From a virus: a DNA stretch of 64,000 nt. The position numbers and the translations under genes are program-made. The DNA is taken from IMG/VR virus record IMGVR_UViG_3300048587_000983, one strand, 5' to 3'. The notes under the pieces are model-generated. The model saw only the letters and a list, made by a program, of their open reading frames with translations. It ran no database searches and was not told where the DNA came from. Positions 42,140 through 61,212 of this stretch are shown here, piece by piece. The first letter of the stretch is position 1, and every line of letters starts with the position of its first letter.

Positions 42140-42213
42140 TCCGGCATTTCTCCGTGCATTCTCATGGGGTTTCTGGTCAGTCCCGAGTATATAGCCTTAG
42201 GAGCCATTTGCCG

Positions 42214-42768
42214 ATGTCATTTCAAAAAACGATTTTATGCGGCGAGATCATCACCGACCCCGAGCTCAGATGGAACCAGGCGGGCGTCGCCTGCTGTGCG
42301 TTTCGCTTGAAGACGGCGGAGAGCTGGATCGGTCCGGACGGCAGCGTGCGCGAGGACGAAGAGAGGCATCGCGTGCTCGTGTGGGGAAAAGACGCAGAGC
42401 GCATCTCAAAGGATTTCAAAAAAGGCCACCTCGTAGTCGTCGAAGGTCGGAACAAAACAAGGGCCTGGAAGAGCGAGAACGGGGTCACGATCGACATCAC
42501 GGAGGTGGTGGCCGTACCTAACGGCGTAAGGTTTTGCGGAGGAGCCGCCCTCGCCGAAAGTCGCCCCGCACGACCCGAGGCTTTCCCGGCTCCTCGACAG
42601 GATCCGCCTCCTGAGAGCGCCAAACAACCGTCCCCGGCAGCTCCCGAGGCTGCGGTAAAAGAAGAAAAGCCTTCCGCTCCCAAAAAGAAGACTCCAATCA
42701 AAGCCGCCGCCCCCAAGCCCGACAAGGTTCCCGTGGACCTCGCCGTCGCAGACGATTTACCCTTCTGA
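42214..42768 (+). CDS. ssb: single-stranded DNA-binding protein
   Basis: L.GEI..DPELR, HRVLVWGK.AE, KGHLVVVEGR..TR.W, acidic tail DDLPF. Confidence 0.95.
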   Translation: MSFQKTILCGEIITDPELRWNQAGVACCAFRLKTAESWIGPDGSVREDEERHRVLVWGKDAERISKDFKKGHLVVVEGRNKTRAWKSENGVTIDITEVVAVPNGVRFCGGAALAESRPARPEAFPAPRQDPPPESAKQPSPAAPEAAVKEEKPSAPKKKTPIKAAAPKPDKVPVDLAVADDLPF

Positions 42769-42855
42769 TCGCCCGTAAACTTTACGGCTTGAGTTTTTCC
42801 GCAGGTCAGCCCAATATCGGGCTGGCGATGAATTAACACCGACCGAGGAATCAGT

Positions 42856-43179
42856 ATGAATTTGAGTGAGTTGACAGACCGAGTGGCCGCAGCTAGCGGA
42901 GCCAGCAAGGCTCAAACACGCGAGATAATCAAAACAACATTCGACGCCATGCAGCTTGAGGTCGCCAAGGGTGGCCGGGTTTGCATCGTCGGCTTTGGAA
43001 GTTTTTACCCCTTCGCCCGAAAAGAACGGGTGGGGCGTAACCCCCAGACGGGAGAAGAGGTAAAAATCCCGGCAGGCCCCGTGCCACGCTTTAAGCCGGG
43101 CAAGGAGTTCAAGGATACGATGGCCAAGGAGAGTCCGGCAAAAGCGCAGCGTCGCAAGGCCAACCGTAAAAAAGATTGA
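42856..43179 (+). CDS. hup: HU family DNA-binding protein with basic tail
   Basis: GFGSF...RKERVGRNPQTGEEVKIPA..VPRFKPGK. Confidence 0.95.
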   Translation: MNLSELTDRVAAASGASKAQTREIIKTTFDAMQLEVAKGGRVCIVGFGSFYPFARKERVGRNPQTGEEVKIPAGPVPRFKPGKEFKDTMAKESPAKAQRRKANRKKD

Positions 43180-43296
43180 AGGTGCACCGGAAGCTCCGGC
43201 TAATCCTTCCCTGTGAGTTTTCCGATAGAGTGCCAGTGCTCAATAGGCTAGGCTGATCTTAAGACCACCGAAGCTTTGCTGGGCAAGGAGGGCCGT

Positions 43297-43479: not shown

Positions 43480-43661
43480 CCCCTTCTTTTTTCAAAGCCT
43501 CGCCAGAAAGCTTTTTTCTCTTCGTGATCTTCATGGAGACCGACCTTGGCTTCGAGCTTTTGCTCTTTCGGGCTTTCCGCAGCTTCCTGCTCCTTTGATT
43601 CCCGCCGCTCATGGCTCAGAAGGAGCGCTTTCAGATCTTTCTTCGACACATCGTCTCTCAT
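43476..43661 (-). CDS. small charged protein with C-terminal FWxGFEKR motif
   Basis: ATGA overlap with the SNF2 stop; ends AFWRGFEKRRG. Confidence 0.65.
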   Translation of the reverse strand: MRDDVSKKDLKALLLSHERRESKEQEAAESPKEQKLEAKVGLHEDHEEKKAFWRGFEKRRG

Positions 43662-45088
43662 GGCTTTTCGCTTCCTTTTTCACGGAGAATATTCAAAAAC
43701 TGGTCGTTCAGAGCATCCTTTTGCGCCGAGAGCATGTCGAGGTACTCATCCACACCAGAGTCCGCTTTCCTGCGTAAAACTCTCTGCAGGAAGGTTTTTG
43801 GAACGGTCGAATGGAACTTCTGAACATGGACATTCCTCTCTTCCGGCGGAAGGTGCTCATGGCTTTTAAAGCGGACGCCCCGGCCCTCAGCCTGCTCCAG
43901 CCGTGAGGTGTTCCAGTGCGGTTCCAAAAGCTGCATCAATTTTGTGCCTTTGAGGTCCAGGCCTTGAGCGCCTGCGCCAGAGATGAGGAGGGCCTTTGCT
44001 CGTCCGGCATTATAATCCTCCACCGCTTGCTTTCGTTTCGCATCAGAGAGTGTCCCGTCAAATACAGCGTGTGGAACACCAAGATTGGCAAGATGTCGCG
44101 CATATTCCTTCACTCCGGAATCGAGGTAGTTTGAGTAGACGACCGCCTTGAAGTTAGGGTCTTTTTGCATACGTTTTTGGAACTCGTCGATCGCCCGCTG
44201 AATTTTTGGAGAAGTCTCCGTTCCCCCAAACCCTCTCGTGCTATTTGATATTTGCCGCGGTCCGGAAAGGAAGGAATTGAGCGACTTGCTCTCCTGTTTG
44301 TTTGGCGGCAAGCCTCGACGAATCTTATAACGAAGCCCAGGACCTGCCTTGTCGAGGACGAAGTCGTAATATTTCATCTGCTCGGCATTCATCGGGACCT
44401 GGATCGTCTCGCGGCTCACAGCGGGAAAGTTCTCCCGCGCCGGCGCGTGATAGTCCACATAGCCCTTCACGAGATCAGCGAAGCGCTCGGGGTTTTTGAT
44501 TTTGTACTCGACCCCTGGTTTTGCCCCATGAAAGATTCGGGCCAGGAGTCCGGGGCTTTTCATGACCTCTGCTATGAAGGCCTTGTCGAAGGCCTTGGGG
44601 TCGGACGGTATTTTCGTATCGCCACGCACCATGGCCATAAGAGGGCCGATCTCGTGCGGGTAGTTGCGGATAGGAGTGCCTGTGAGAAGAATCCGCTTGT
44701 CGTAATCGCGCGCCTTTTGAATCATCTCCTGAGTCCGCTTGCTGTCGGTGCGACCGAGCATGTGGGCCTCATCGACCACAAGAGCGTGGCCCGTAGGTGG
44801 CGTCTTCACGGCCTTTTCGTAGCTCATGATGTTCGGCTTGTGGCCAGTCGTATGCTTTTGTACCTCTTTCGCATAGTTCTGACGAAGAGCCGCTGGTACA
44901 ACGACATCGGTTTCGTCACCTTGCGTCGCGGCCAGGGAGGTGAGCGTCTTGCCGCTTCCAAGGCCGTGATAGACAAGAACGCCCGGCTTTTTACCGAGCC
45001 TTTGCTGAACGCGGATCTGCTGCGGCTCCAGCTTGGTTGTGGTTTTTAGTTTGGCTCTCTTCTCAAAACCCAGCCAGAAGCTGTGCAT
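43658..45088 (-). CDS. SNF2/SWI2-like superfamily 2 helicase/translocase with FWxGFEK leader (476 aa)
   Basis: HGLGSGKT, VVDEAH, LTGTP, GAQGLDL, EPHWN..EQAEGRGVR; SD GGAGGAG before ATG 45088. Confidence 0.92.
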   Translation of the reverse strand: MHSFWLGFEKRAKLKTTTKLEPQQIRVQQRLGKKPGVLVYHGLGSGKTLTSLAATQGDETDVVVPAALRQNYAKEVQKHTTGHKPNIMSYEKAVKTPPTGHALVVDEAHMLGRTDSKRTQEMIQKARDYDKRILLTGTPIRNYPHEIGPLMAMVRGDTKIPSDPKAFDKAFIAEVMKSPGLLARIFHGAKPGVEYKIKNPERFADLVKGYVDYHAPARENFPAVSRETIQVPMNAEQMKYYDFVLDKAGPGLRYKIRRGLPPNKQESKSLNSFLSGPRQISNSTRGFGGTETSPKIQRAIDEFQKRMQKDPNFKAVVYSNYLDSGVKEYARHLANLGVPHAVFDGTLSDAKRKQAVEDYNAGRAKALLISGAGAQGLDLKGTKLMQLLEPHWNTSRLEQAEGRGVRFKSHEHLPPEERNVHVQKFHSTVPKTFLQRVLRRKADSGVDEYLDMLSAQKDALNDQFLNILREKGSEKP

Positions 45089-45110: not shown

Positions 45111-45491
45111 TCAAATGGTGCCAAGCATAAGCTCTTCGTCTTCGCCCGTTCGCGCAAGATAGCGGAGGTATTCCTTCTGTTCTTTTGGAGGCATGGCGAG
45201 AACTCTTTTGGCTTCCTCGATACCCCGCTTCTGGGCGATCGCCCTAAGGACCCCGGCCAGCCCGCCGACAGCCAAGCCGGCCGCACCTCCGGCAAAAGCC
45301 CCAGGGACAGCGCGGTCCGCGGCACCGAAAAGAGCCCCCGTAACCCCGCCTAAACCAGCTCCGACGAGACCTCCTTTTAGTTTCGACAGCGGTTTTTTCT
45401 GCGCTGATTCTTCGAGCTCTTTTTTAAGAACACGAGCCTCGTAATCGTAGTCGTAAGCCCGCTTTTCAAAGCCGTTCCAAAATGCATGCAT
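45111..45491 (-). CDS. glycine-zipper membrane protein with FWxGFEK leader
   Basis: MHAFWNGFEKRA; GGLVGAGLGGVTGALFG and GAFAGGAAGLAVGGLAG; TGATG coupling to the RNAP gene. Confidence 0.8.
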   Translation of the reverse strand: MHAFWNGFEKRAYDYDYEARVLKKELEESAQKKPLSKLKGGLVGAGLGGVTGALFGAADRAVPGAFAGGAAGLAVGGLAGVLRAIAQKRGIEEAKRVLAMPPKEQKEYLRYLARTGEDEELMLGTI

Positions 45492-48400
45492 CAGTATTTC
45501 CCTTCCTTGCCTTTGCCAAACTCCGCTCCGTAGGCGAACGCCGGGATCGGATGGTAGTCACTCGTATTCGTGCTCCAGCCTTGCGAGGCCCCGGTCGTCA
45601 GCGCGCGCTGCAGCTGCTGATAGCCGAGAGCAGCCATCCAGTCTTTTCTCAAAAGAGGCAGATTGCGCACGGATTTGAGAAGTGGCGCATGAACTATGGG
45701 ATCCTTTTGAATCTTAACCGTTTTCACCGTGGCCGAAAGCCGGGAGATGTCCTCAGGGGTCATCTCGTGCCCCGCGCGAAGGCCTCCGGCAGACTCGGCG
45801 AGCTTAAAGCCGAGGCTCTCTTCGATCGGCACGTCCTGGGCGAGGTTTTTGTTGTGGTGCTGGGCCACCGTATAGGGGATCACATCCCCCGGAAGATAAC
45901 CCGTCCCTTTGGGAGCGTTCTGCACCTGGGTCGTATTGCCCATGGACCGCACAACGGTCTCAAAAATCTTTTTGTGGAGATTGACCCCCTGGCCCTCGTA
46001 GCTCTTTTTGAGCTCGGTGGCGAGGTAGTCCTGGGCGGCGTCCATCCCGAGGTGTTTCACGAGATCCTGGGGCTTGATAGGCCCCTCAGAAAGCGGCTCA
46101 CCACGCCTGACCTGCGAGCCCACCTGCACGCGAAGAGGTTTGCCCTGAGGAACATGCGCCTTTGTGTCTTTACCGATCGTCACGACAAAGCCGCCACCAA
46201 GACCCTTTTCGATCTTTGTCACCCGGCCATCGACCGGGGCAAGTGGCGCAGCGCCTGCGACCTGCTTTGGCATCTGAAGAAGCTGATCGATCCGGGCGTA
46301 GCCCTGAACGTCGGCCCCTGTGCCGGCAGCCCCGCCCGTGTGGAAAGTTCGCATCACCATCTGCACCAGCGGCTCACTTATCGTCTGGCCTGCCTTGGCA
46401 CCGATGTTCTCGCCTATCTCAGGCATGTGACCGTGCTCGTCGAGGCCATAGCACTTCGCGCATGTGCCTTTTGGGGCAAGACAGCGAAGTGGCGAGCGGA
46501 CCTTGATGCTTGAAAGACCGCGTTTTTTCAGCTCGTTGACCACCTTCGTGTCAACCAGGGTATTGTGAGAAAAGCCGCCCTGATCGCCCGCGAGGAAGCG
46601 GTCGTAGACATCGGTGTCCTCGATCTTGTGAGCGACCCCTTCTTTCGTTCCGCAGTCCTCTTTTGATATGACGTTTCCGATTGTGGTCGCCATGATGTCT
46701 TTTGAAAAGGCCCCGGGCAGCGAGGTCTGGATCGCCCTATCCATCATGCCTCGACGAGCCCCGTACATGCTGATCCAGTAATCGCCGACGTCCAGGCCTT
46801 CGGCGTAGGATTTTTTTATTGGGGTCGGGATAATGCGGCCCTTTTCGTCGCTCATAAAAAGAGGGGTCGCCACGATCTGCCTGAGCTGGCTTGAGTTGCC
46901 GCGCGCCCCTGAGCGGACCATATCGAAAAGCGGATTGTCTTTCCCTTCGAGCTTTTTCTCGATGACCTTGTCGATAAGGTTCGCCGCGCGCTTGTTGACG
47001 TCCATAAGCCGGGCCTGGTCGGTGGTCGCCGCAGCGGCTCTGGATGCACTCTCGACCACCCTGTCACGGATCGTCCCAAACTGCGCAATGTCTTCAAGAC
47101 CAAGTGTAAAGCCTCTTTCGTATGCGTGCTTTTCACCTTCGGCCTTGAGGTTGGCGACGATACTCGCATAGTCCTGCGGCGGCAGCTCTTTTGAAAGCTT
47201 CATGACAAGAGCCCCGGTCGCCTTTTTATCAAGGACACCCGTGACCTTATATTTCTCAGGCAGAAAGCGATTGAGGCTCTGGCGGCCAGCCGGCGTTTTT
47301 GAAAGGTAGAAAAGCCCAATCTGCGCCTCCTGGGAGGGCTGAATCATAAGCTTGCCCGACCCCGGCTGGAAGAGATTGCGCGAGGGCTTCAGCCGCTCGG
47401 CCTCTTTGTTGGCCTCATCTCCAATCGGCACGTGAACCGTCATCGTATCGCCGTCGAAGTCAGCATTGAATCCTTGAACGATAAGAGGCGGGATCTTGAT
47501 AGCCTTGCCGTCGGTGATCTTGGGCTTAAATGCCATGATCGAGAACTTATGCAGCGAAGGGGCTCTATTCAAAAGAACATGCCGCTGCTTCATGACATTA
47601 TCGAGTGCTCGGCGCGCAGTCTGCGTTTTCTTCTTGATGGCCTCTTTCGCGTCGAGGGGGTTCAGTCCGAAGTTGCGAAGCTCGCGCACGACGAAAGGTT
47701 CAAAGAGCGACCACGCCATAGGCTCGGGCATCGCCATTTCATCGACGCCAAGCGAGGGCTCAGGGATGATCGTCCCGCGGCCGACATAGTCCTGCTGCTT
47801 TGAGAGGAGCTTGCTGATAAAGAAGCCCTCTTTTGGCTGACCACCCGTGCCGCCCTTGATCTCGGCTATAAGGCCGTCCTTCGGCTTTCCTTTCATGGTC
47901 GTATTCGTAAGACCGACGACACCCTTCACGTGCTTATAAAGATCGGCGCGGACATCAGCCTTCGCATCCTCCGAAAGCAGGTCCATGACGGGAAGGTTCA
48001 TCACCGTGTTGACGACGCCCACGTTCTGATAAAGATCGTTCACGGGGGATGTCGCCACCTCGCCCGTTGGCAGTGGGTAGATGGGTCTATAGATGGGAGG
48101 CAGCACCGGAAGCTTTCTTCGGATGTAGGCCTCTTCAGGACGAAGACCTGTCTGCTTCAGCGCCGATAGGTAGCGAAGCTTTTTGTTCATGTCGTCAAGC
48201 TTCGAGCCAGTCGCATTCTGCGCTTTTCGCGTAAGGTTCTTAAGCTCCGCGTCGACGTCCATTTTCTTTAAAAGTGTTTCGATTCCCGCGCCGCCGGTGA
48301 CGCCCGTATGCTCGGTCGTGAGGCTGCCGTCAGGTTTAACGAAAAGCTTTCCTGCAACGATCTCGTCAAATTTCCCCGAGAGCCCGAGAAGTTTTCTCGC

Positions 48401-51400
48401 TGCCTCTTCAAACGCCGGGTTTACGACGGGCTCCTTCAGCTCAAGATGGCCCCACTTGGTTCCCTTGAGGCCGCCGAAGATCTTGCCATCGAAAAACCCG
48501 CCCTTGACGGGCTGAAAGTCCTTGGCGTGATAGAAGTGCGCCTTCTGCACGCCGCCGCTGCTCATCTTTTCGATCTGGGCGTCCGTGAGAGGGGCAAGCG
48601 TGAGTTTGGTCCCCTCCTTTTGGACATCGATGCCGGCCCCCTTCAGATAGGCCATGAATTTGTCGAATACAAACGGGGCCTTGGGCGGCGGCAGCTGCTG
48701 GCCGCTACGAAGTGCCTTCCAGTATTCGTCGTTGACGTTCGCTTTCAGCGAGCTCATCTCACGAAGGTTTGCCCGCGCCCCGTGGGAGAGGAGCGAATAC
48801 ATCGTCAGAAGGTCGAGCGATTTTGAGCCTTCCTCGCCGCCTGTTTTCAGGGGCTGAAGGTTACTGTCATACGGCATCCCAGGTCCGCCCTGGCGAACCG
48901 AGAAGTTGCCGGCCGATTGCTTGAAGAGCTTCAGGATGTATGGGTTTCCGACGTGCACCTGACCGAGGCTTTTGCCAGTCGAAGGATCAAAAAGTTCTTC
49001 CTTGTCAGACACCCCGTTTTCTTTAAGAAACTTTCGAGTTGTGCCAAGATAGTTTTGTCCTGTGAAGTTTTGAACCTTGTATGGAGCCCCAGCTTTGAGA
49101 GCCGCCTTGCCTGCAGCAGACTCGTAGATCTGACCAATGTTGATTCGTCCAATAACTCCGTGAGGATTGAGGAGGATATCGACAGCTCCGCCTCCAGCAT
49201 CCTTCGGCATCTGTCCATCGGGGAGGATTTTTGTGATGATGCCCTTGTTCCCCATGCGTCCCGAGAGCTTGTCGCCGATCTTTGCGCGCTCCTCGGTTCG
49301 TATGAAGACCGTGATCGTTCCCCCAACTTTAACCACTTCAGTGACAACGCCTTCGTCCTCGCCCGTCCAGCGAACGCTGGCATCCCGCGGTCTATCCGCG
49401 AGGGTTTTGGAGATAACCGCGATCTGAGCATCCCGATTCTTCCTCTCCATTGCTGCGATGATAATATCACCCGAGCGGACGCGCGAACCTTTTTTGATAA
49501 CGCCATCAGAACCAATTTTTGAGGCGTTGTCCGGACTCAGGAGCGCCGGGTAGTTCAGCCGGAAAAGCCCCTTGTCGAGAGTTGACTGGGGTGTTACCGC
49601 GTAGGATTTTTTGTGTATGTGCTCGCTCGTGAGCTTCTCAGCCGCAGACTCCGAGATTACAATCCCGTCCTCGAAGTTGTAGCCCTTGTAGGGAATATAT
49701 GCGGCGCGCAGGTTTGTGCCGAGCGCCAGCGTCCCGCCTTTTGTAAAATTGCTCTCCGCGAGGAGCTGATCCTTTTTCACCCGCTCCCCGACCTTGACCA
49801 CGGGCGTATGATGGAGAAAGCTTTTCCGGTTGAGCGAGAAGTTATTATAGAGGCTAATCTTCCGATCACCTCCAGCCGTCGTAAGAACGATCTCGTCCTC
49901 GCCAACCTTTTTTACAGTGCCTTCTTCAGGGGCACGAATCGCCACCTGGCGCCCGACGACCTCCTCCATGGATTGGCCGGTTGAAGTTCCGACTTGAACA
50001 AGCGGCGCCTCCCGGTGCTTAAGGCCGATGGCCTGCTCCAGCATTTTCGAGGCCATCATCGCCCGGTTCCCCTGGTTTGAGGGAAGAAAGGGGACAAGGT
50101 TTGTCGATGGAGAGAAAAGGGCCTCGGCGGTTGGCGTGAAGTAATCCACCTTGGAGACGGGCACCATAACGATCTGCCCGCGGTAGAGGGCCTTGACCGT
50201 ATCGCCCTTTTGCCCCGGAAAAGCCACGTACTTCTCCCAGCTTTCAATTGGCGTGAGAGCCTCAGGCTGCCCCGTCTTTGCATTTTTCAGGATGGCCTTA
50301 AGATTCTTGCCGTCCTTGATCACGCCCATTGGAAGGTGGAGGTTGACGCCTATTCGTTCTGATTCAGGCGTGTGGACGGGGTCTATGAAACCGTAATGCG
50401 AAGGGTGGACCTGCCGCATCTCGTCTTTGATTGCATGGCGCGATGTGATCCCGCCCGAACCCATGAAAGTCGCCTTGTGTCCGCCGGATAGCATCTCAAG
50501 GGGATTTGTCTGCTCGGGCGTTGCCGCCTTGTCGTCCTGCGTGAAAAACCCCTCGACCGTAGACGAGAACGCGGCCGGGTTTACGAGCTGGCTTATCTTC
50601 ACACGGCGCGGGTTATCGACCTGTCTTCGGATCTTGCGCTCCAGCTCTGTGCGGTTCTTTTCAAGACGCTCGGCTATGAAATCCTCCACGCTATGGATTT
50701 CTTTAAACGCGAGGGAGTCCCTGTCCACGGGTTCTTTTTTTCCAAGCTGCACATCAAGAAGGTTTTTGGACGCGGCCAAGAGCATTGGCCCATCGACCCT
50801 CTCAAACGAAGTCCCAAGCACCAGTTTCGTCGTATCCGCCGGCAGAGACGTTTTTCCAAAATACTCTCTGAGACCATCTTTTTTAACCCCGAACGCGGTT
50901 TCAGCACGCTGCACCGCTTTCGGATCAGTATTTTTGTTGGCCGCCTCTAGTTTGGAACCCCAGGTTTGAGCCATGAGTACAGGAGAGACGCCGAGATGAG
51001 TAAGAATAGGATAAAGAGGAATATTCGTCTGACCCCCGCCGATTTTCTGGATGGTGAAGACACCACTCCTCTCATCAAACGCGAGGTCAAAGTTCCTTCC
51101 TCGTGCCAGGTTAACTTGGGTTTTGAGTTGTCCATTTTGCTTCCTTATCGTGTAGACGCCAGAGCGCAGGCGAAGCTGGTTGTTCACCTGATACTCGTTG
51201 CCGGCGACGATATACGACGAGCGCGCCGTTGCCGTTGGAAGAAGAAAGAGCCTCACTTTCTCCGCGCGGTCAATCACTTTTCCTGTCGAATTTTCGACGA
51301 GTGACAGCGAGGCGTACACAGGAACCCCCCATGTCCCCTCACGAAGCTTTGTCTTTGCCTGGCCGGAAAAGTCGTCCGGAGCGGCTTTGTCGTCGGTCCA

Positions 51401-51517
51401 GACGTTATCAAGCTTCATCGTGCGGATTCGCCCAGTCACCGGAAAAATCGATCGGACGGCATTTACCGCAGCACTCTTCACCGATTCAGTTTGCTGTTTG
51501 GCGTCAAAATTTCGCAT
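45491..51517 (-). CDS. rpoBC: single-chain two-barrel RNA polymerase (fused beta-beta'), 2008 aa
   Basis: beta motifs HPSHYG.IDP..TPE, GYNFEDG, GDKLSGRMGNKG, NPHG..GRINIGQ; beta' motifs LLNRAPSLH, FNADFDGD (47447-47467), bridge helix GARRG, CAKCYG, trigger loop MRTFH.GG; no stop between the halves. Confidence 0.97.
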   Translation of the reverse strand: MRNFDAKQQTESVKSAAVNAVRSIFPVTGRIRTMKLDNVWTDDKAAPDDFSGQAKTKLREGTWGVPVYASLSLVENSTGKVIDRAEKVRLFLLPTATARSSYIVAGNEYQVNNQLRLRSGVYTIRKQNGQLKTQVNLARGRNFDLAFDERSGVFTIQKIGGGQTNIPLYPILTHLGVSPVLMAQTWGSKLEAANKNTDPKAVQRAETAFGVKKDGLREYFGKTSLPADTTKLVLGTSFERVDGPMLLAASKNLLDVQLGKKEPVDRDSLAFKEIHSVEDFIAERLEKNRTELERKIRRQVDNPRRVKISQLVNPAAFSSTVEGFFTQDDKAATPEQTNPLEMLSGGHKATFMGSGGITSRHAIKDEMRQVHPSHYGFIDPVHTPESERIGVNLHLPMGVIKDGKNLKAILKNAKTGQPEALTPIESWEKYVAFPGQKGDTVKALYRGQIVMVPVSKVDYFTPTAEALFSPSTNLVPFLPSNQGNRAMMASKMLEQAIGLKHREAPLVQVGTSTGQSMEEVVGRQVAIRAPEEGTVKKVGEDEIVLTTAGGDRKISLYNNFSLNRKSFLHHTPVVKVGERVKKDQLLAESNFTKGGTLALGTNLRAAYIPYKGYNFEDGIVISESAAEKLTSEHIHKKSYAVTPQSTLDKGLFRLNYPALLSPDNASKIGSDGVIKKGSRVRSGDIIIAAMERKNRDAQIAVISKTLADRPRDASVRWTGEDEGVVTEVVKVGGTITVFIRTEERAKIGDKLSGRMGNKGIITKILPDGQMPKDAGGGAVDILLNPHGVIGRINIGQIYESAAGKAALKAGAPYKVQNFTGQNYLGTTRKFLKENGVSDKEELFDPSTGKSLGQVHVGNPYILKLFKQSAGNFSVRQGGPGMPYDSNLQPLKTGGEEGSKSLDLLTMYSLLSHGARANLREMSSLKANVNDEYWKALRSGQQLPPPKAPFVFDKFMAYLKGAGIDVQKEGTKLTLAPLTDAQIEKMSSGGVQKAHFYHAKDFQPVKGGFFDGKIFGGLKGTKWGHLELKEPVVNPAFEEAARKLLGLSGKFDEIVAGKLFVKPDGSLTTEHTGVTGGAGIETLLKKMDVDAELKNLTRKAQNATGSKLDDMNKKLRYLSALKQTGLRPEEAYIRRKLPVLPPIYRPIYPLPTGEVATSPVNDLYQNVGVVNTVMNLPVMDLLSEDAKADVRADLYKHVKGVVGLTNTTMKGKPKDGLIAEIKGGTGGQPKEGFFISKLLSKQQDYVGRGTIIPEPSLGVDEMAMPEPMAWSLFEPFVVRELRNFGLNPLDAKEAIKKKTQTARRALDNVMKQRHVLLNRAPSLHKFSIMAFKPKITDGKAIKIPPLIVQGFNADFDGDTMTVHVPIGDEANKEAERLKPSRNLFQPGSGKLMIQPSQEAQIGLFYLSKTPAGRQSLNRFLPEKYKVTGVLDKKATGALVMKLSKELPPQDYASIVANLKAEGEKHAYERGFTLGLEDIAQFGTIRDRVVESASRAAAATTDQARLMDVNKRAANLIDKVIEKKLEGKDNPLFDMVRSGARGNSSQLRQIVATPLFMSDEKGRIIPTPIKKSYAEGLDVGDYWISMYGARRGMMDRAIQTSLPGAFSKDIMATTIGNVISKEDCGTKEGVAHKIEDTDVYDRFLAGDQGGFSHNTLVDTKVVNELKKRGLSSIKVRSPLRCLAPKGTCAKCYGLDEHGHMPEIGENIGAKAGQTISEPLVQMVMRTFHTGGAAGTGADVQGYARIDQLLQMPKQVAGAAPLAPVDGRVTKIEKGLGGGFVVTIGKDTKAHVPQGKPLRVQVGSQVRRGEPLSEGPIKPQDLVKHLGMDAAQDYLATELKKSYEGQGVNLHKKIFETVVRSMGNTTQVQNAPKGTGYLPGDVIPYTVAQHHNKNLAQDVPIEESLGFKLAESAGGLRAGHEMTPEDISRLSATVKTVKIQKDPIVHAPLLKSVRNLPLLRKDWMAALGYQQLQRALTTGASQGWSTNTSDYHPIPAFAYGAEFGKGKEGKY

Positions 51518-51668
51518 AGAAGTTGATATAAGCCTCCTGGCGGAGCGTTTAACTTTTCACTTTGAAAGGGGTTCTATAGACAAACTAGAGTAGTTTTCGT
51601 GAAAAATCACCTTTTCTTTCCGATGAGTTGTTTCTGAATGAACTGGCTTTACACAAGGAAGGCAAGCC

Positions 51669-52199
51669 ATGTCGATTAACGCTGAATTTGAAGCTGAAGT
51701 TTCGTCTGACCACGATAGTCCTTTTTCAAAAGCGCCCGGTGGAAACCCTTTCGGGGGTTTTGCGGGAGAGACGGGTGGAAACCCATTCCGCGATTCCCCC
51801 GGGGCGCAGCAGCGGAAATCGCCAAGCGGCGGATCGAAGCCGAACTTTGTGGTACGCGCGTGGCGAGTTGTGAAGGACTTCTTCGTCGGTATCGGAAGGG
51901 CTGTATTTTCACGACAGTTCTGGGTTGATTTTATAGCAACAGCGCTCCGTGATGCGCTTGCCGCTCTTGGGTATTCGATCGGCATGCGAATGGTCAAGAA
52001 AGCTGCGGCGACCGGTGACATCATCTTCCGTGACAAGAGCGGAATGGTGTCAGAGACTGAAGCAGCTGCGCAGGGTACGGCGTATGCGAGCCAGCAGTCC
52101 TGGCCGCCAAGAGCAAGGCCATCAGGTGGTTCCGTCCAGGACAATCTCATGGCTTACCCCGCTGACAGGCCGTACGCACAACGGTCGTTTGTAAACTGA
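51669..52199 (+). CDS. hypothetical protein with GGNPF repeats and amphipathic/hydrophobic helices
   Basis: 176-aa ORF divergent from the RNAP gene, SD AAGGAAGG. Confidence 0.65.
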   Translation: MSINAEFEAEVSSDHDSPFSKAPGGNPFGGFAGETGGNPFRDSPGAQQRKSPSGGSKPNFVVRAWRVVKDFFVGIGRAVFSRQFWVDFIATALRDALAALGYSIGMRMVKKAAATGDIIFRDKSGMVSETEAAAQGTAYASQQSWPPRARPSGGSVQDNLMAYPADRPYAQRSFVN

Positions 52200-52216
52200 G
52201 AAGGTTTGCGCATCGG

Positions 52217-52240
52217 TGCGCCCTGGGATCCCAGGGCGCA
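52217..52240. terminator. 24-bp perfect palindrome between convergent genes (probable bidirectional terminator)
   Basis: TGCGCCCTGGGATCCCAGGGCGCA followed by TTCTCATTTTTTT on +. Confidence 0.7.
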
Positions 52241-52264
52241 TTCTCATTTTTTTAGCTATGCCCA

Positions 52265-52507: not shown

Positions 52508-52701
52508 GTCACCACCAGCTCCAAGTGATCCTGAATCGAGGTGATGCGCCCTGTGTCCGGGTCCATCTCCCGATTCGATATTTTTTCCTTGATGCGGTCG
52601 AGGATCTGCGCGTTTGGGTTATTCAGGATCGCCTCGTACTCTGCGCAGTCCTCTTTGTCATTGAGGTTGAACCGCTTTACAAATTTTCTTGTCGTATACA
52701 T
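52483..52701 (-). CDS. hypothetical protein
   Basis: 72-aa ORF, TAATG coupling to the portal gene. Confidence 0.65.
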   Translation of the reverse strand: MYTTRKFVKRFNLNDKEDCAEYEAILNNPNAQILDRIKEKISNREMDPDTGRITSIQDHLELVVTWQERTLL

Positions 52702-54731
52702 TAAACCGCTCCCTGCCGCCGCGGAACCTTCTGCTCAGGCAAAGGGTCCATGCCTACGCCGCCACCACTGGGCGCTGGCGTGGGAGAGCCTGCACCACCT
52801 TGCATCGGCGCGGCTTCGCCCGAGCCCTCAGCGCGCAGCTGATTGAGACGGGTTTCGATACGCTGACCAACCTCGGGCATTTTTTGTTTCACCTCGGAGA
52901 GCGTAAGGGCGGCTTCACCGGGCGAAAGGCTCATCAACTGGCGAGCCCAGGAATCGACTTTCGAGTCGATTTGCTGACCAAGAGCCTTGTCTTCCTTGCC
53001 GCCGGCAGCCGCTCCACCTGCTGTGCCCGGCAGGCCTTGAGCCGTAGCAGCGCCGGGTGCGCCCCCTCCAGCTCCGCCTCCAGGGCCGGCAGGTCCGCCT
53101 GCAGAGGGGTCACCGCCGCCGGGTGCATTTGGATCAGTTGGCTGATCGAGGGGACCAGGAATCCCAAGCCTCTGAGCCCGCTCCTGTGCAGCCACCTGGG
53201 CCTTCTCGGAAAGCTCCTGAAGTGTCTGCTGATAATTAAACTGAATGAGCGAGGCCTCACCCTGCGAGCGTGCACCTGATTTGCTTTGTAGATCCATGAT
53301 GTAGTTCTGGACATGCTGCTCTTCGATAAGTTTTTTGGTTTCCGACTCGTAGTCGTAGCCGAGTTCTGTGAGAAGAGTTTGGTCGCTGATCTTCCGCTGA
53401 GCGTTAAGCCCGATGAGCTGCTGATTCCTTTGAATATCGTCAGCCATACGAAAGTCGGAGAACCGGATATCCTTTACGTCAGAGAGGTTGAGCCATGTGC
53501 GCAGCTTGTCTTTCAGCCAAAGAGTAAAATCAAGAAGCTGGCTTCTATTCTGGATAAAGTCGTTCTCGAGCGTCCGAAGCGAAACGCTCGACCCTGTCCA
53601 GTTGAGACCACCAAAGAGGAACTCCTGCGGAAGCCCGAGCCCACCGACAACTGTCTGCGTGATGTAGTTGATTTCAGGCGCGAGGAGGAGCGCTTTTCCG
53701 TCACCACCAAGTCGCCCAAAGCCAATCGGGATAGGGATAACACCTTTGAAGTTGGGATCGCGGCGGTGCTTTGTGATGACGTTTTCAACCTGCTGCCGCC
53801 AGCTGGCAAGGTCCGTATGAATGTAGGGGTCCTGCTGCGCGTTTGGAAGCGGGTAGATCATATCGAAGGGGACGATATGCTCCATCGCAATCGCTTCCTG
53901 CGCACGCCTGAGGGTATAGAGGTAATACATATCCTTCAGGACGTGGATGATTGCAGGCTTGCCCCAGCCCTGGTCCTGCTCAGCCAGTGTCGGAGCTTTC
54001 AGGTGTTTGATGTTATCTGAGTTGAAGCGAATCATCCGGCGGTTTTTAAGAGCTTCAAGGACGATGATGGGAATGTCCTCGATGATGTCCTTGTCGCCGC
54101 GAAGGATGGCATTACGAAGCTTTCCGGGCACCGAGTACATATAGATGTAGCGGCCCGTATATTCGTTGAACTTGATGTGGATATTTTCAGGGTTCCAGCG
54201 GACTATCCGGATCCCTTTTCTACTTCGATAAGGGACGTCTTTTACGGTCACCTGCCCCGTGTGGTTGCAGCGTGAACAGGTCCCCGAGAACTGATAGTCG
54301 GCCCCGCGAAACGTCCAGTCCCATTGGCGAATAGGCTGGCTGTTGCGACATTCCTTACAGACGAGAAACCGCGTGAAAGGGAAGTGGATACTGACGAACG
54401 CGTTGCCGTAAGTATGGTAGTCGAGGTTAATCTCCATGAGCTTGTCTTTGATGAAAAGCTCTTTGTTGAGAATCTTGTCCCAGACGTTACGGTTGCTCTC
54501 CTGGTCGTCCTCGATGATAAGGTCTGTGATCGGGTACCGCGAAACCTTCTTCATCGCAGCCCCGATGAGGGGGCTGTTGTAGTAGTAGTAGGTGCACCAG
54601 CGGAAAAGCTCCTTGATCGTCGGCGGCATGTACTGCTGCGCGAGGTCAAAGAACTGGTTTGGATACCGCTGGCCCCTCATGTCTCCGAGGGCAAGCGAGG
54701 GCTCGGCCAGGCGTTCCTGTGGGTTGGTCAT
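52701..54731 (-). CDS. portal protein (putative) with zinc-ribbon insertion and Gly/Pro-rich tail
   Basis: Y.NSPLIG, YHTYGNAF, GLPQEFLFGG, ISDQTLL.ELG; CKEC..CSRC insertion; structural module context. Confidence 0.75.
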   Translation of the reverse strand: MTNPQERLAEPSLALGDMRGQRYPNQFFDLAQQYMPPTIKELFRWCTYYYYNSPLIGAAMKKVSRYPITDLIIEDDQESNRNVWDKILNKELFIKDKLMEINLDYHTYGNAFVSIHFPFTRFLVCKECRNSQPIRQWDWTFRGADYQFSGTCSRCNHTGQVTVKDVPYRSRKGIRIVRWNPENIHIKFNEYTGRYIYMYSVPGKLRNAILRGDKDIIEDIPIIVLEALKNRRMIRFNSDNIKHLKAPTLAEQDQGWGKPAIIHVLKDMYYLYTLRRAQEAIAMEHIVPFDMIYPLPNAQQDPYIHTDLASWRQQVENVITKHRRDPNFKGVIPIPIGFGRLGGDGKALLLAPEINYITQTVVGGLGLPQEFLFGGLNWTGSSVSLRTLENDFIQNRSQLLDFTLWLKDKLRTWLNLSDVKDIRFSDFRMADDIQRNQQLIGLNAQRKISDQTLLTELGYDYESETKKLIEEQHVQNYIMDLQSKSGARSQGEASLIQFNYQQTLQELSEKAQVAAQERAQRLGIPGPLDQPTDPNAPGGGDPSAGGPAGPGGGAGGGAPGAATAQGLPGTAGGAAAGGKEDKALGQQIDSKVDSWARQLMSLSPGEAALTLSEVKQKMPEVGQRIETRLNQLRAEGSGEAAPMQGGAGSPTPAPSGGGVGMDPLPEQKVPRRQGAV

Positions 54732-55986: not shown

Positions 55987-58900
55987 TCACCCCACAGTTA
56001 TGAAAGCGGAGCGCCCGGAGATGTCGGTCGCGCCATCATTGATAAGCATCTCGATATAGTAGCTTCGATCCGCGGCGGGCGGGACGAACGGCATGCTGAA
56101 GGCGAAGACGCCGTCTGCATTCGGCGAGGCGAGGTTCGCCTCCCAAAGAAGAGCGCCTTCGGTGCTCTTGACCTTGATGCGTGCATTGCTCGCCGAAAGG
56201 AAGGGTGCTCCGTTCTTTTCAAGCCAGACTATGACTTCCTGCGTTTCATCGCTGGAGTTCAGCGTCGTGGACATCCTGCAGAAGGCGGTGTTGATCGTGA
56301 TTTCCTCAACATCCTCTTTCGTTGCAAGGTCTGAGATATCAGGCCCGAAGCTCTGAGGATCCTGCGTAATCGTCCGGCTCGGGTAGGTCCAGATTTCGGC
56401 TGCAGTAGCGCCCCCGCCCCCGCCACCGCACACGTTGTCGATCTCGCTTAGGATATTCGCCTCGACCGTCGAAAGCTGCGAGCCTGTTGCAGGGTCGCTT
56501 GTGATCTGATCGGTTTTGGCCTTCACAAGATTCACCGTCGCCTGGAGCGTATTGAGCTTGGCTTCGTTCTGATTGATCTCGGAGGTCAAAGCCGTTTGAG
56601 TGCTCGACAGCTGGGCCGTAGTGGCCAGAGGGGCGAGGTCCGCGGCCTGTACCGTGCCTCTTGTCGATACCGCGACGTCGAGCCTTGTAAGACGCACATC
56701 GCTGGCCAGGACCGGATTTGTCGGACGCGCGAGAACGCTCGTCTCCTTCGCCGGATCTGGCGGGAGGTTGTCTGTCTTGGACTTGATGCCGGTGGCCTTG
56801 AGGTCGAGGTTGGCGATGGCTATCGACTGAGCCGAGAAGCCGCCTGTCACAACGGAAGCGGAAACCGGATCGGACGGCAGGTTGGTCGTTTTCGCCTGGA
56901 TGGCGGATACGTCGGCCTGCATCGCATTGACGAGAATCTGCGTCTGATTGTCACCCGAGGTGATGAGTCCTGCCAGCGAGCTCACGGTGGACTCCTGAGC
57001 CACACCGGCGAGAGCGGAAGCGACCTGTGAAGCCGTTGCGCGGGTCGAGACCTGGGCATCGAGCATGTCGGCCACACGTTTGCCGAGAGAGCCGTTTACG
57101 GTCGCCTGCGAAGCCAGATGATCCCAGATGGCCTTGACCGAGGCCGCGGGCAAGCTGAAGCTCGTCAGCTCGCGCGTGCCGTAACTCCAGACGCTGGCGG
57201 CGTCGAGGATCGAGCGGCTCGAAATCGTTGCGTCGAGGTTGTTGAGCCGCGGGTCGTTGGTCTTCATGATAGGCGTAAAGTCGATCTTGTCGTAGATCGC
57301 CGTGTTGTTGCGGTTGTCAGGACCAACGATGTAGTCCCGCGTCAGGTCGAGACGGGTCTGAATCTCATTGATGTCAGGGCGCGTCAACACAGTGGCGTTG
57401 ACAGCCGAGACCGAGGCCAGCGTTGCCGGATCGTTCGGTATCAGATCGGTCCGGGCCTTGATGTTGATGAGAAGCAGCTCGTTGGCGTCAATTTCGCCGA
57501 TGATCTGGCTTTGGCCTGTTTTGATGGCTGCAAGCCCGTACACTCCGGAGTTCACGGCGAGGTTTGTGTTGGTGACGGTGCCTTGAACACTTGTCAGCTG
57601 GGCCTGAATCGAGTTGAGATCGCTCTCAAACTCTGTGATTTCAGTGACCGCCGGTACATAGCGCGTTGCCCCGTTCTCGATCACGGTCGCCTCAACGAGA
57701 GCCTGATATTCGTCCGTTCCCGAGGTTATGCTAAAATTATAGTAGTAAGCCCCCACTTTGACTCCGTCGGGCGTCATCGCAGCTCCCGCCACGATGTCGA
57801 TGCCTGTGTCGAGTCTACGTATCCTTATTGTGGGGGTGCTATCCGGGGCCTCAGCGTGCCCCGTCTCATCATAGAGCCGCAGGTGGAACTGGTAGGTTTT
57901 GGTTCCACTCGTCGGCTTCACCAGCCTCTCAGGAACAATAAACCGCACCGTTGTATTGTTTTGAATCGTCCCGATCTGGGCGGCGACGGCGTCGACCTTT
58001 GTTTCGACGACATTGATTTCGCCTATGATGCTCGACTCGGCGGCGGTCAGCTGCGTGGCCAGAGCCTCGATCAAAATCTGATTCTGATCAATCTCGCTTT
58101 TCAGCAGAGCTGTCTGCGAGCCGACGTAAGGTATGATGGCGTCGATCTTCGTCTCGTTCCCGTTGACCTCTGCTATGACAGCCAGTTCACTGTCGCCGAT
58201 CGCGCCGAAAATCTGCGACAGACCGTAGGTGGGGCTGTTGAGCTCGGCCAGGGTCGAGAGCGCGGATTGCCGGATGACCTGGACATAGTTGCCGAAGGTG
58301 TTCGGAAGGTTGTGTGGTGCGACAAGAGCGTCCCATACCGCAGCGGCGATTCCGGTTGGGGTCGAAGCTGTAAGGCTGCCGAGAGCCTCCCCCGTTGATC
58401 CAGGCGATGTGTGAGCAGAGAGCAGCTCATCCCATACTTCATCAACCACAGCGGCTCTGGATGCTGACGACAACGCGTAGTCCGTCTTATCCGAGACGAC
58501 CTGCGCATTCGCGTTGACATTGGAACCGGTGAAGGTCAGCTGATCGGTTTTGACTTTGATTGCGGTGACGTCGGCCGCTGTGGAGTCCGCGACGGCTTTA
58601 ACCGCAGCGATATCAGCAGAGACGGTCGAGACCGGCGTCCCAATCTTCGTTTGAATGTCATCCGTATCGGCCTGCACACCGGCAATATCGGAGGTCAAAT
58701 CGTTGAACCTTGTGAGCGCATCGGACTCAGCCTGCCGAGTGGAGACATCAACATCGAGCCGCTTGCCAAAGCTCCCTGCTGCTGTGTGACCAGCCTGGAG
58801 CTCATCCCAAACGGCATCGACCAGCTGGGCCTCGGCCGCCGGAGAGAGAACGACACCGCTCGTCCCCGTATCATCGAGAATCGCTGCAGTGTCCGCTTTC

Positions 58901-61212
58901 ACAGCGGCGACATCAGCACTGAGCGAGGCGCCGACAGGGGTCCCGATTTTTGAATTGATGGTATCGGCAGTGGATTTGACCGCCGCAATGTCGCCCGCCA
59001 GTGTCGTGACAGGGGTTCCGATTTTGGATTGAATGTCATCCGTGTCAGATTGGATGGAGGCCGTCTCAGCTTTCACAGCTGCGATATCACCAGCAAGCGT
59101 GGAGGCAGGTGAACCGATCTTCGATTGGATATCGTCCGTGTCTGACTGCACGCCTGCAATGTCACCGGCAAGAGTTGAAACCGGCGTCCCAATTTTGGAT
59201 TGAATGTCATTCGTATCTGTCTGGATCGACGCCGTCTCGGCTTTTACAGCTGCGATATCCGCGCTTACCGAGGCGCCGGCTGGCGTTCCAAGCTTTGTCT
59301 GTACCGCTGCAATGTCACCGGCCAGAGTTGTGACCGGCGAACCTATTTTTGACTGAATGTCATCGGTGTCAGCCTGTACGCCTGCGATATCGCCAGCGAG
59401 GGTCGATACGGGCGACCCGATCTTCGCCTGGATGTCATCCGTGTCTGCTTGAAGCGCGTTGTATTGAGAAAGCGCAGTCGCAGACGACTGCCTGGAGCTA
59501 ACCGTTGTATCGAGGTTCGGGAGGTTATCAAGATAACCCGCGCGAGTCGCCGTGAGACGGGAAAGGAGAGTATCGAGTTTCGTTTCAAACTCTTGAACTT
59601 CCGTTGTCCGGACTTGCTGGAATGGGACGGAGTTTTCCGCGTATTCCATGAAGACAACAAGCGGGCGCTCGGGGTCCGTTGAGTTCACAGTGTATGGGTA
59701 TTCATAAGCTCCGACAGCCGTCCTTGTCATAGGGGTTGTTGCCACAACCACTGAGCCGCCAGGGGTCTCGATTCGGATGTTGATCGTGTTGGAGTCCGGA
59801 TCCTCGGGGCTTCCGGCATCATCGTAAAGCCGCCCGAAGAATTTATAGACCTGACTTCCAGAGGTCGGAAGAATGAGAGGCGACTGGACAACCATTGCAA
59901 AGCGCGTGTTGTTTTGAATCGCATCGACCGAGGCCTGCGTGGCCCGGGAGCTGACTGTCGCATCGAGATTCGGCAGATTGTCGAGGTAGCCTGCGCGCGT
60001 AGCCGTGAGGCGGCTCGTAAGGGTTGAGGTATCCGACTTCACGGCTGCAATGTCGACGCTCACCGAGGCGCCCGCCGGGGTGCCTAGTTTTGTCTGGACA
60101 GCTGCGATATCGCCGGAAATCGTGGATACCGGCGAGCCGATTTTAGCCTGGATGTCATCCGTATCAGCCTGCACGGCAGCTATGTCGCCGGCTAGGGTCG
60201 TGACAGGCGTTCCTATTTTGGACTGGATGTCGTTGGTATCGGATTGGATTGATGCCGTTTCCGCTTTAACGGCTGCAATATCAGCACTAACTGAGGCGCC
60301 AGCCGGTGTACCGATCTTCGATTGAATGTCGTCAGTATCGGCCTGCACACCCGCGATGTCGCCAGCGAGAGTCGTGACAGGCGTACCGATCTTCGATTGA
60401 ATGTCGTTTGTATCGGATTGAATCGAGGCAGTCTCTGCTTTGACTGCAGCGATGTCCGCGCTTACCGAAGCCCCAGCGGGAGTGCCTATCTTCGATTGGA
60501 TATCGTCCGTATCGGCCTGAACGCCCGCGATGTCCGACGCCAGTGTGCCCACGGGCGCCCCGATTCTCGCCTGAATGTCGTTGGTGTCAGACTGCACGCC
60601 TGCGATATCACCGGCAAGAGTTGAAACCGGAGTTCCGATTTTTGCCTGGATATCGTTTGTATCTGCCTGGATCGAGGCCGTCTCGGCTTTTATAGCGGCG
60701 ATGTCCACACTCACCGAAGCCCCAGCGGGAGTGCCTATTTTGGATTGTATATCGTTGGTGTCGGCCTGTACGCCTGCGATATCACCGGCAAGAGTTGAAA
60801 CCGGAGTTCCGATTTTAGCCTGAATGTCGTTGGTGTCGGCCTGAACGCTCGCAATGTCACCGGCGATGGTCGAGACCGGCACCCCGAGTCTTGTCAGAAG
60901 AGTGGCCAGATCCTGATCGATGGAGCGGACCTCGATCTCTTCATCATCCCACTCATAGGCGCGGTCTGCTGTTGCAAACCCAACCGTGGTATAGATTTCG
61001 TAGGACACTGAATACTGACCTTCGACTGTCGGGTTCCACCCGCTCCCCGAATAGTGGCCGCTTCCCCTGTGGGTGAGGGTGAACGGCGAGCCCGACACCT
61101 CAGTGCCGGCGGAATTGAAAACCCTGGCACGAACACCTTTCGTGGTATTCCCGTCCCAGAGGGTTTTACAGAGGAGGACGTTGCTATTTACCTCAGCCGT
61201 TCTTCCTGCCAT
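55987..61212 (-). CDS. giant segmented coiled-coil fibre protein (1741 aa)
   Basis: Tandem DIAGVQADTDDIQSKIGTP repeats, AVWD/EVWD repeats, about four Ig-like globular domains. Confidence 0.85.
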   Translation of the reverse strand: MAGRTAEVNSNVLLCKTLWDGNTTKGVRARVFNSAGTEVSGSPFTLTHRGSGHYSGSGWNPTVEGQYSVSYEIYTTVGFATADRAYEWDDEEIEVRSIDQDLATLLTRLGVPVSTIAGDIASVQADTNDIQAKIGTPVSTLAGDIAGVQADTNDIQSKIGTPAGASVSVDIAAIKAETASIQADTNDIQAKIGTPVSTLAGDIAGVQSDTNDIQARIGAPVGTLASDIAGVQADTDDIQSKIGTPAGASVSADIAAVKAETASIQSDTNDIQSKIGTPVTTLAGDIAGVQADTDDIQSKIGTPAGASVSADIAAVKAETASIQSDTNDIQSKIGTPVTTLAGDIAAVQADTDDIQAKIGSPVSTISGDIAAVQTKLGTPAGASVSVDIAAVKSDTSTLTSRLTATRAGYLDNLPNLDATVSSRATQASVDAIQNNTRFAMVVQSPLILPTSGSQVYKFFGRLYDDAGSPEDPDSNTINIRIETPGGSVVVATTPMTRTAVGAYEYPYTVNSTDPERPLVVFMEYAENSVPFQQVRTTEVQEFETKLDTLLSRLTATRAGYLDNLPNLDTTVSSRQSSATALSQYNALQADTDDIQAKIGSPVSTLAGDIAGVQADTDDIQSKIGSPVTTLAGDIAAVQTKLGTPAGASVSADIAAVKAETASIQTDTNDIQSKIGTPVSTLAGDIAGVQSDTDDIQSKIGSPASTLAGDIAAVKAETASIQSDTDDIQSKIGTPVTTLAGDIAAVKSTADTINSKIGTPVGASLSADVAAVKADTAAILDDTGTSGVVLSPAAEAQLVDAVWDELQAGHTAAGSFGKRLDVDVSTRQAESDALTRFNDLTSDIAGVQADTDDIQTKIGTPVSTVSADIAAVKAVADSTAADVTAIKVKTDQLTFTGSNVNANAQVVSDKTDYALSSASRAAVVDEVWDELLSAHTSPGSTGEALGSLTASTPTGIAAAVWDALVAPHNLPNTFGNYVQVIRQSALSTLAELNSPTYGLSQIFGAIGDSELAVIAEVNGNETKIDAIIPYVGSQTALLKSEIDQNQILIEALATQLTAAESSIIGEINVVETKVDAVAAQIGTIQNNTTVRFIVPERLVKPTSGTKTYQFHLRLYDETGHAEAPDSTPTIRIRRLDTGIDIVAGAAMTPDGVKVGAYYYNFSITSGTDEYQALVEATVIENGATRYVPAVTEITEFESDLNSIQAQLTSVQGTVTNTNLAVNSGVYGLAAIKTGQSQIIGEIDANELLLINIKARTDLIPNDPATLASVSAVNATVLTRPDINEIQTRLDLTRDYIVGPDNRNNTAIYDKIDFTPIMKTNDPRLNNLDATISSRSILDAASVWSYGTRELTSFSLPAASVKAIWDHLASQATVNGSLGKRVADMLDAQVSTRATASQVASALAGVAQESTVSSLAGLITSGDNQTQILVNAMQADVSAIQAKTTNLPSDPVSASVVTGGFSAQSIAIANLDLKATGIKSKTDNLPPDPAKETSVLARPTNPVLASDVRLTRLDVAVSTRGTVQAADLAPLATTAQLSSTQTALTSEINQNEAKLNTLQATVNLVKAKTDQITSDPATGSQLSTVEANILSEIDNVCGGGGGGATAAEIWTYPSRTITQDPQSFGPDISDLATKEDVEEITINTAFCRMSTTLNSSDETQEVIVWLEKNGAPFLSASNARIKVKSTEGALLWEANLASPNADGVFAFSMPFVPPAADRSYYIEMLINDGATDISGRSAFITVG
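58880..60890 (-). repeat. two arrays of 18-32-aa coding repeats within the fibre gene (approximate limits)
   Basis: 11 + 7 units ending in [KR][IL]G[TSAV]P, separated by an Ig-like domain; synonymous codons differ between units. Confidence 0.85.

Follow-up and report, generated by a model that had tools for sequence, protein, structure and literature searches.

A single-chain β-β′ RNA polymerase without the β′ zinc finger in a lineage of large phages, and a candidate sigma70-family partner

The polymerase gene and its product

The 64,000-nucleotide stretch of IMG/VR record IMGVR_UViG_3300048587_000983 analyzed here (the window) is part of a metagenomic phage contig of about 175–181 kb from the Joint Genome Institute (JGI), and it encodes a 2008-amino acid protein, P0001, in which the two large subunits of a bacterial-type RNA polymerase are joined. 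Pfam matches to Rpb2_3 and Rpb2_6 are followed along the chain by Rpb1_1, Rpb1_2, Rpb1_4, and Rpb1_5, and a comparison with the sequences in the PDB returned bacterial β′ chains, the best with an E value of 5e-115. A family profile of 73 full-length sequences was then aligned to the Escherichia coli subunits with hhalign. Residues 17–968 correspond to residues 49–1340 of β and residues 970–1894 to residues 20–1294 of β′, both with an hhalign probability of 100. Because the two alignments abut, the gene is a head-to-tail β-β′ fusion with a junction of one or two residues. The identity of the family polymerase to E. coli β and β′ is 28–33% over about 900 aligned columns each. Homologues were located on 79 IMG/VR phage contigs, the longest of 226 kb.

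The features that define the enzyme are collected in Table 1. With its Rpb1 and Rpb2 domains and the NADFDGD catalytic center, the protein has what characterizes a bacterial-type β/β′ polymerase, and the second β′ zinc site and the flap tip are also present. The rudder is shortened relative to that of E. coli, and the insertions specific to the E. coli lineage have no counterpart in the phage protein (hhalign). Searches of five complete relatives for the α (PF01000) and ω (PF01192) subunits gave no match, while the positive-control genomes were all matched; this absence is compatible with use of host α or ω, which the phage enzyme may recruit. The rifampicin pocket carries five substitutions in its main region and, further on, an I572N substitution at residue 392 (window 50342–50344; hhalign). 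This altered pocket predicts an enzyme that would be insensitive to rifampicin.

The gene varies in its layout among homologues. Many are interrupted by inteins, and such proteins reach 2350–3220 amino acids. In some relatives, including Salmonella phage Arash (gp206 and gp216) and two metagenomic records (G013 and G014), it is split after the active site, near residue 1410–1420, a position that resembles that of the cyanobacterial rpoC1/rpoC2 split. Nine genes separate the two parts in Arash.

Table 1. Coordinates of the polymerase gene, its landmarks, and two neighboring genes in the window
Feature	Window coordinates	Strand	Basis
Single-chain β-β′ multisubunit RNA polymerase, 2008 amino acids (P0001)	45491..51517	-	Open reading frame and translation
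Rifampicin-pocket region: Q513A, D516E, H526G, R529K, S531T	50468..50524	-	hhalign residue map
β flap-tip region, residues 693–707, 6 residues shorter than in E. coli	49397..49441	-	hhalign against E. coli β 870–935
β/β′ junction, about residues 968–970	48608..48616	-	End of β alignment at 968 (E. coli β 1340), start of β′ alignment at 970 (E. coli β′ 20)
Site of the absent β′ zinc-binding domain, residues 1008–1027, FFDGKIFGG-LKGTK-WGHLEL	48437..48496	-	Three alignments, 66-member family, AlphaFold2 model
Clamp coiled coil (clamp helices), residues 1158–1201, with V1169 (R275), V1189 (E295), H1196 (A302)	47915..48046	-	AlphaFold2 helices 214–229 and 239–257 of the model; hhalign register
Catalytic NADFDGD motif, residues 1351–1357 (D1353, D1355, D1357)	47447..47467	-	Motif position; aligned with E. 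coli D460/D462/D464 (hhalign)
Second β′ zinc site: C1622, C1679, C1686, C1689	46451..46654	-	Aligned with E. coli C814, C888, C895, C898 (hhalign)
SNF2-family helicase, two genes downstream of the polymerase	43658..45088	-	Pfam SNF2-rel_dom and Helicase_C in the JGI gene call; PHROG DNA helicase, E 2e-36
Weak portal-like protein, 676 amino acids, upstream of the polymerase	52701..54731	-	phrog_16240 portal, E 9e-6

The zinc-finger site and the clamp helices

An earlier note on this DNA, made from the sequence by eye, had pointed out that FFDGKIFGG runs directly into KWGHLEL where E. coli β′ carries its four-Cys zinc finger, and this observation held up in every comparison made. As the reference we used E. 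coli rpoC from NC_000913, in which the identities of C70, C72, C85, C88, R275, E295, and A302 were confirmed. Three alignments were prepared, one by MAFFT with 57 homologues, one by global hhalign with a 66-sequence profile, and one by local hhalign with the 73-sequence full-length profile, and all of them contain a deletion of about 32 amino acids at the zinc-finger site. In the local hhalign alignment the deleted segment is E. coli β′ 67–98, which has no counterpart after residue 1018. The deletion removes C70, C72, C85, and C88, and hence the whole four-Cys finger. Across the lineage, 66 of 66 members have no Cys at the site and retain only 9–18 residues there, and gp206 of phage Arash likewise does not contain the segment. 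An AlphaFold2 model bridges the site with high confidence (predicted local distance difference test, pLDDT, of 96; blocks 61–80 of the model). Given that the loss is common to all 66 members and to Arash gp206, it is ancestral to the lineage rather than an artifact of sequencing or alignment; on these comparisons, the N-terminal β′ zinc finger is deleted in the ancestor of this phage lineage. That a separate small zinc-ribbon protein supplies the finger in trans and keeps its function is very improbable. Nothing supports such an arrangement directly, although split polymerase subunits are common in phages, as in Arash (near residue 1420) and in the two split metagenomic relatives. In the model a short, confident loop spans the gap, and no candidate was seen beside the polymerase gene, although no systematic search for one was made.

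The AlphaFold2 model covers residues 945–1420 (model numbering plus 944 gives protein numbering), has a mean pLDDT of 89, and finds bacterial β′ chains as its best matches in the PDB. It contains a clamp hairpin of E. coli-like overall length, made up of a helix at residues 1158–1173, a kink at P1176, and a second helix at residues 1183–1201. According to PMC8321222, the docking interface in E. coli is formed by R275, E295, and A302 of the β′ coiled coil together with residues 403, 406, 407, and 409 of sigma region 2.2. The earlier note had placed Val, Val, and His at the three β′ positions. This register was reproduced by the AlphaFold2 model and by the global hhalign profile alignment, which puts R275 on V1169, E295 on V1189, and A302 on H1196, but its three assignments are not equally firm. 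The NDLY anchor is unambiguous and fixes the register of helix 1, and the loss of R275 is robust across the sequence alignments. The assignment of E295 depends on the alignment, since HMMER against Streptomyces β′ (read by eye) puts E295 opposite R1190 and A302 opposite G1199, and local hhalign puts E295 opposite A1185. None of the HMMER, MAFFT, or hhalign alignments brings back the Arg, the Glu, and the Ala.

The family at large shows which of these substitutions are general. Among the 66 members, position 275 is mostly Val, Ile, Ser, Thr, Leu, or Asn, with Arg never among the common residues, and position 295 is mostly Leu, Val, or Ile. Position 302 is Gly, Ala, or Ser in 54 of the 66, and the His is confined to the window's own clade. 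That clade also does not have the basic residues that E. coli carries at positions 270, 271, 275, 278, 280, and 281, and no basic residue is left in its helix 1; Lys or Arg at 270, 280, and 296 is retained in many relatives.

Host sigma70 or other host sigma factors might still bind if the three substitutions weaken docking on an intact coiled coil without abolishing it. The normal length of the coiled coil agrees with this idea, as do the small residue at 302 and the basic residues at 270, 280, and 296 that most relatives keep, and mutations in sigma 2.2 are described as merely weakening binding (PMC8321222, citing Young 2001). The same paper also reports, citing Arthur 2000 and Young 2001, that any one of R275Q, E295K, or A302D impairs holoenzyme formation in E. 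coli. In the phage lineage the R275 equivalent is mostly hydrophobic, and helix 1 of the window's clade is devoid of basic residues. Matches to sigma70-type promoters around the polymerase gene (36–56 kb) are at chance level rather than in excess, with 8 found against 7.3 ± 2.7 expected, and a dedicated phage sigma is conserved in the lineage, as described below. We consider binding of host sigma factors improbable on this evidence. The substitutions at R275, E295, and A302 do not by themselves rule out sigma-dependent initiation, since β′ and sigma 2.2 of Hodgkinia change at the same positions (PMC8321222).

A sigma70-family factor, promoters, and neighboring genes

The earlier note had suggested looking elsewhere in the genome for a sigma-like factor or one akin to gp68/gp226, and the relatives provided the former. 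Two Arash proteins, gp10 and gp196, are annotated as sigma factors in the GenBank record of that phage. When five related records were searched with Pfam Sigma70_r2 and Sigma70_r4, both proteins were recovered, as well as further sigma candidates. The Sigma70_r2 match of gp10 is weak, and this protein and a 232-amino acid open reading frame (ORF) of an IMG/VR relative are clear homologues. From these two sequences a family of over 300 metagenomic proteins, about 230–280 amino acids in length, was built. Sigma70_r3 was matched in 23 of 23 aligned members and Sigma70_r4 in 4 of the 23. The family profile aligned by hhalign to residues 389–599 of E. coli RpoD, which span regions 2.1 to 4.2, with a probability of 96.9. 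An AlphaFold2 model of the phage protein (pLDDT 84.6) gave sigma70-family chains, such as SigA, SigS, Sig32, and WhiG, as the top Foldseek matches listed. The factor of about 232 amino acids is thus a genuine member of the sigma70 family, in which sigma2 and sigma3 are followed by a sigma4 helix-turn-helix. It is not a factor of the gp68/gp226 kind, for homologues of which no search was made. The hairpin or single-stranded DNA promoter that the earlier note had entertained finds no support, since a sigma2-sigma3-sigma4 architecture points to double-stranded promoters with two elements.

The sigma gene and the polymerase gene occur together in both directions of search. The sigma-family profile matches 10 of 10 polymerase-bearing records with E values of 1e-37 to 1e-108, including all 8 records with a completeness of 90% or more, and one of the proteins matched is Arash gp10. 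Conversely, five large IMG/VR records were picked by their sigma gene, and all five contain the polymerase, fused in three and split near residue 1410 in two. When the relatives' records are treated as circular, the sigma gene is found on the strand of the polymerase gene, about 44–99 kb upstream of it.

The region of the phage sigma that would touch the coiled coil has also changed. In the aligned family set Ala stands at position D403, where the paired genomes have either Ala or Thr; at Q406, Ala or Gly predominates, and N409 is variable and often basic, which leaves the E407 equivalent as the only one of the four that is mostly kept. Loss of D403, Q406, and N409 argues against a sigma made for a normal bacterial core. 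Both partners are altered at the same interface, the β′ coiled coil on one side and sigma 2.2 on the other, and the interface has thus diverged on both sides, as a co-diverged pair would show. From these sequences we infer that the phage sigma pairs with the phage polymerase. The view of the earlier note that the enzyme needs its own specificity factor gains support by the same inference, from the co-occurrence and the altered region 2.2.

Some relatives encode a second sigma. Arash gp196 (L002, Arash 120656–121693) has a strong Sigma70_r2 match, one metagenomic relative (G002, L088/L089) encodes a 192-amino acid sigma that resembles the extracytoplasmic function type and has both r2 and r4, and weaker paralogues are found in two others (G003, L109; G009, L115). 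The presence of several phage sigma factors in these genomes suggests temporal control.

For the phage of the window itself, a metagenome scan with the sigma profile found 80 loci, none of them on this phage's contigs. One protein, P0228, was considered as its sigma and is present on 10 contigs, but these belong to a different phage. Candidate promoter elements were also sought in the window. The most frequent k-mers turned out to be coding repeats of a 1741-amino acid protein, and enrichment of 7-mers upstream of genes is weak. The polymerase promoter would be expected in the 151-bp divergent intergenic gap at 51518–51668. On the + strand at 52215–52242, a strong GC-rich hairpin of 12 bp precedes a T-run, and this element resembles an intrinsic terminator. 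It is directly 3′ of the sole + strand gene (51669–52199) between the portal-side genes and the polymerase gene.

The polymerase gene is located between a weak portal-like gene and a block that encodes an SNF2 helicase, HU, a single-stranded DNA-binding protein (SSB), and an intein-bearing terminase, so that portal and terminase genes are both near it. The order from portal to polymerase is common to the window and Arash (gp204 to gp206). The SNF2 helicase is a possible transcription partner of the polymerase. Within the block, the HU-like (107 amino acids) and SSB (184 amino acids) genes at 42140–43240 are on the opposite strand. The large terminase (1005 amino acids, GpA_ATPase, 33359–36376, - strand) is interrupted by an intein with Hint, Intein_splicing, and LAGLIDADG_3 in the JGI call. 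The 1741-amino acid protein (55987–61212, - strand) contains many near-identical coding repeats (~...DTDDIQSKIG...), the source of the commonest k-mers, and is probably a fiber or decoration protein. Overlapping metagenome contigs extend about 12.5 kb past the right end of the window. About 9.0–11.5 kb past that end they carry an extremely Gly-rich ORF of 847 amino acids (L201:1023-3566), which JGI gene calling had fragmented into spurious small genes. At this ORF, the metagenome assemblies of this phage mostly end no more than about 1.5 kb from one common point, which marks a repeat or a genome end.

A possible phage transcription system and its relation to known systems

The reading that we favor, with moderate confidence, is that the phage owns a fused β-β′ core that has lost the zinc finger and is directed by the lineage's own sigma70-family factor, not by host sigma70. 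In this reading the gene product is the catalytic core of a phage-owned bacterial-type polymerase, with β and β′ in one chain. Its active site and second zinc site are retained, as are the clamp coiled coil and, in shortened form, the flap tip. On the coiled coil, the equivalents of R275 and E295 have turned hydrophobic across the lineage, and in the window's clade most basic residues of helix 1 are gone as well. Host sigma70 would not be taken up by this enzyme. The lineage's sigma2-sigma3-sigma4 factor of about 232 amino acids would bring it to promoters, which would be ordinary double-stranded elements of the −35/−10 type with phage-specific sequences. The flap tip, six residues shorter than that of E. 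coli, would be the seat for sigma4, and loss of the zinc finger would remove both the contact of the core with spacer DNA and a docking site for host regulators. The enzyme then probably runs as a self-contained phage transcription system.

Several observations weigh against this reading. A sigma-like ORF is absent from the 64-kb window by phmmer with the sigma proteins of four relatives and by the sigma-family hidden Markov model, and a sigma factor for this phage is thus proposed from relatives whose polymerases are about 35–49% identical in the region examined. The frequent k-mers and upstream 7-mers of the window yielded no phage-specific promoter motif. The mapping of E295 varies with the alignment, and two acidic residues, D1188 and D1192, adjoin its equivalent. 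Within one viral lineage any two core genes would be expected to occur together, and the co-occurrence of sigma and polymerase is weak evidence of contact. Sigma factors by which a phage redirects the host polymerase are encoded by many phages, commonly by large ones (PMC7598289, PMC7824862), and the polymerase gene adjoins the portal gene in a structural module in both the window and Arash, as would be the case for an enzyme packaged in the virion.

The last two points would fit an arrangement in which the conserved phage sigma redirects the host core, as SPO1 gp28 and T4 gp55 do, and the β-β′ enzyme uses another factor or none, for example as a virion-packaged early polymerase that acts with the neighboring SNF2 ATPase and small proteins. 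The SNF2 helicase and small genes do follow directly after the polymerase gene, SNF2 helicases are linked to polymerase genes in phages of the phiKZ group (PMC7824862), and the canonical sigma contacts are gone from the coiled coil. We nevertheless regard this arrangement as unlikely because the phage sigma itself does not have the D403, Q406, and N409 that are used on a bacterial coiled coil. In addition, sigma and polymerase co-occur in 10 of 10 and 5 of 5 records, and both docking sites for sigma are still present in the polymerase, namely the flap tip and a coiled coil whose length is normal. The Arash polymerase genes are also not among the genes annotated as 'structural protein', labels that we assume to rest on virion proteomics.

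In its strongest form, the proposal of a phage core directed by a phage sigma describes a fully orthogonal system, which we put forward more tentatively. A single-chain core without α, ω, or the zinc finger would accept only its co-evolved phage sigma through an interface of clamp helices and sigma 2.2 that has been rebuilt and is largely without charge. The core would respond neither to host sigma factors nor to rifampicin, nor to host regulators that need the zinc finger for docking. If the pairing is true, this would be the most reduced bacterial-type core that is still paired with a sigma, with one chain, no α or ω homologue, and no β′ zinc finger. It would then also offer a compact natural model for sigma docking on the clamp helices and for the contribution of the zinc finger, a candidate two-protein orthogonal transcription system, and a route for phage transcription that is independent of host factors. 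The idea is directly testable in cultured relatives, among them Salmonella phage Arash and Vibrio phage D69.

The system resembles bacterial RNA polymerase with sigma70 in its domain order, the catalytic NADFDGD, the second zinc site, the clamp coiled coil, and the flap, and in the sigma2-sigma3-sigma4 partner found in relatives. It differs by the β-β′ fusion, the loss of the zinc-binding domain, the absence of α and ω homologues in relatives, the contact residues on the coiled coil and in sigma 2.2, and the shorter flap tip and rudder. Helicobacter and Wolbachia have naturally fused β-β′ subunits that are, like the window enzyme, a single polypeptide, but these are cellular enzymes of the ordinary kind, with a zinc finger and with α, ω, and standard sigma factors. 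At the interface, a parallel is provided by Hodgkinia and other tiny endosymbionts, for which PMC8321222 describes substitutions at β′ 275, 295, and 302 and at sigma 403, 406, 407, and 409, including N409 to Arg, as well as a reduced flap tip. In contrast to the phage-specific system proposed here, the Hodgkinia polymerase is cellular, has α, and was shaped by genome erosion.

Among phages, the mReC group (Weinheimer & Aylward 2020, PMC7481178) consists of tailed phages of about 150–230 kb with a deep-branching, bacterial-like β/β′ gene. Arash (OQ632216) and D69 are the cultured relatives in this comparison. Arash gp206 and gp216 make up a split orthologue that is 29–34% identical to the window protein and adjoins the portal gene, and gp10 belongs to the sigma family; the Arash polymerase is split near residue 1420, whereas that of the window is one chain. 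The lineage appears to fit the mReC clade, a membership assigned here by homology and genome type. In the mReC paper the polymerase serves as a phylogenetic marker, and neither sigma nor zinc is mentioned (PMC7481178). The zinc-finger loss and the sigma traits are not described for this clade in the papers found, a literature search for phage Arash found no paper, and a DNA search of a phage collection gave no match.

The non-virion RNA polymerases (nvRNAPs) of phiKZ and AR9 are likewise phage-owned multisubunit enzymes without α and ω that need a phage specificity subunit, and they share the link to an SNF2-type helicase (PMC7824862). Unlike the single 2008-amino acid chain of the window, they are split into four or five proteins, and they keep the N-terminal zinc ribbon and come from genomes without a sigma (PMC7824862). 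The AR9 enzyme reads the template strand and can use single-stranded DNA (PMC7598289), whereas the lineage described here has a sigma70-family partner. In a survey of jumbo phages (Iyer et al., PMC7824862), those with their own multisubunit polymerase had no sigma and those that encode a sigma had no polymerase. Unlike either group, the present lineage has both.

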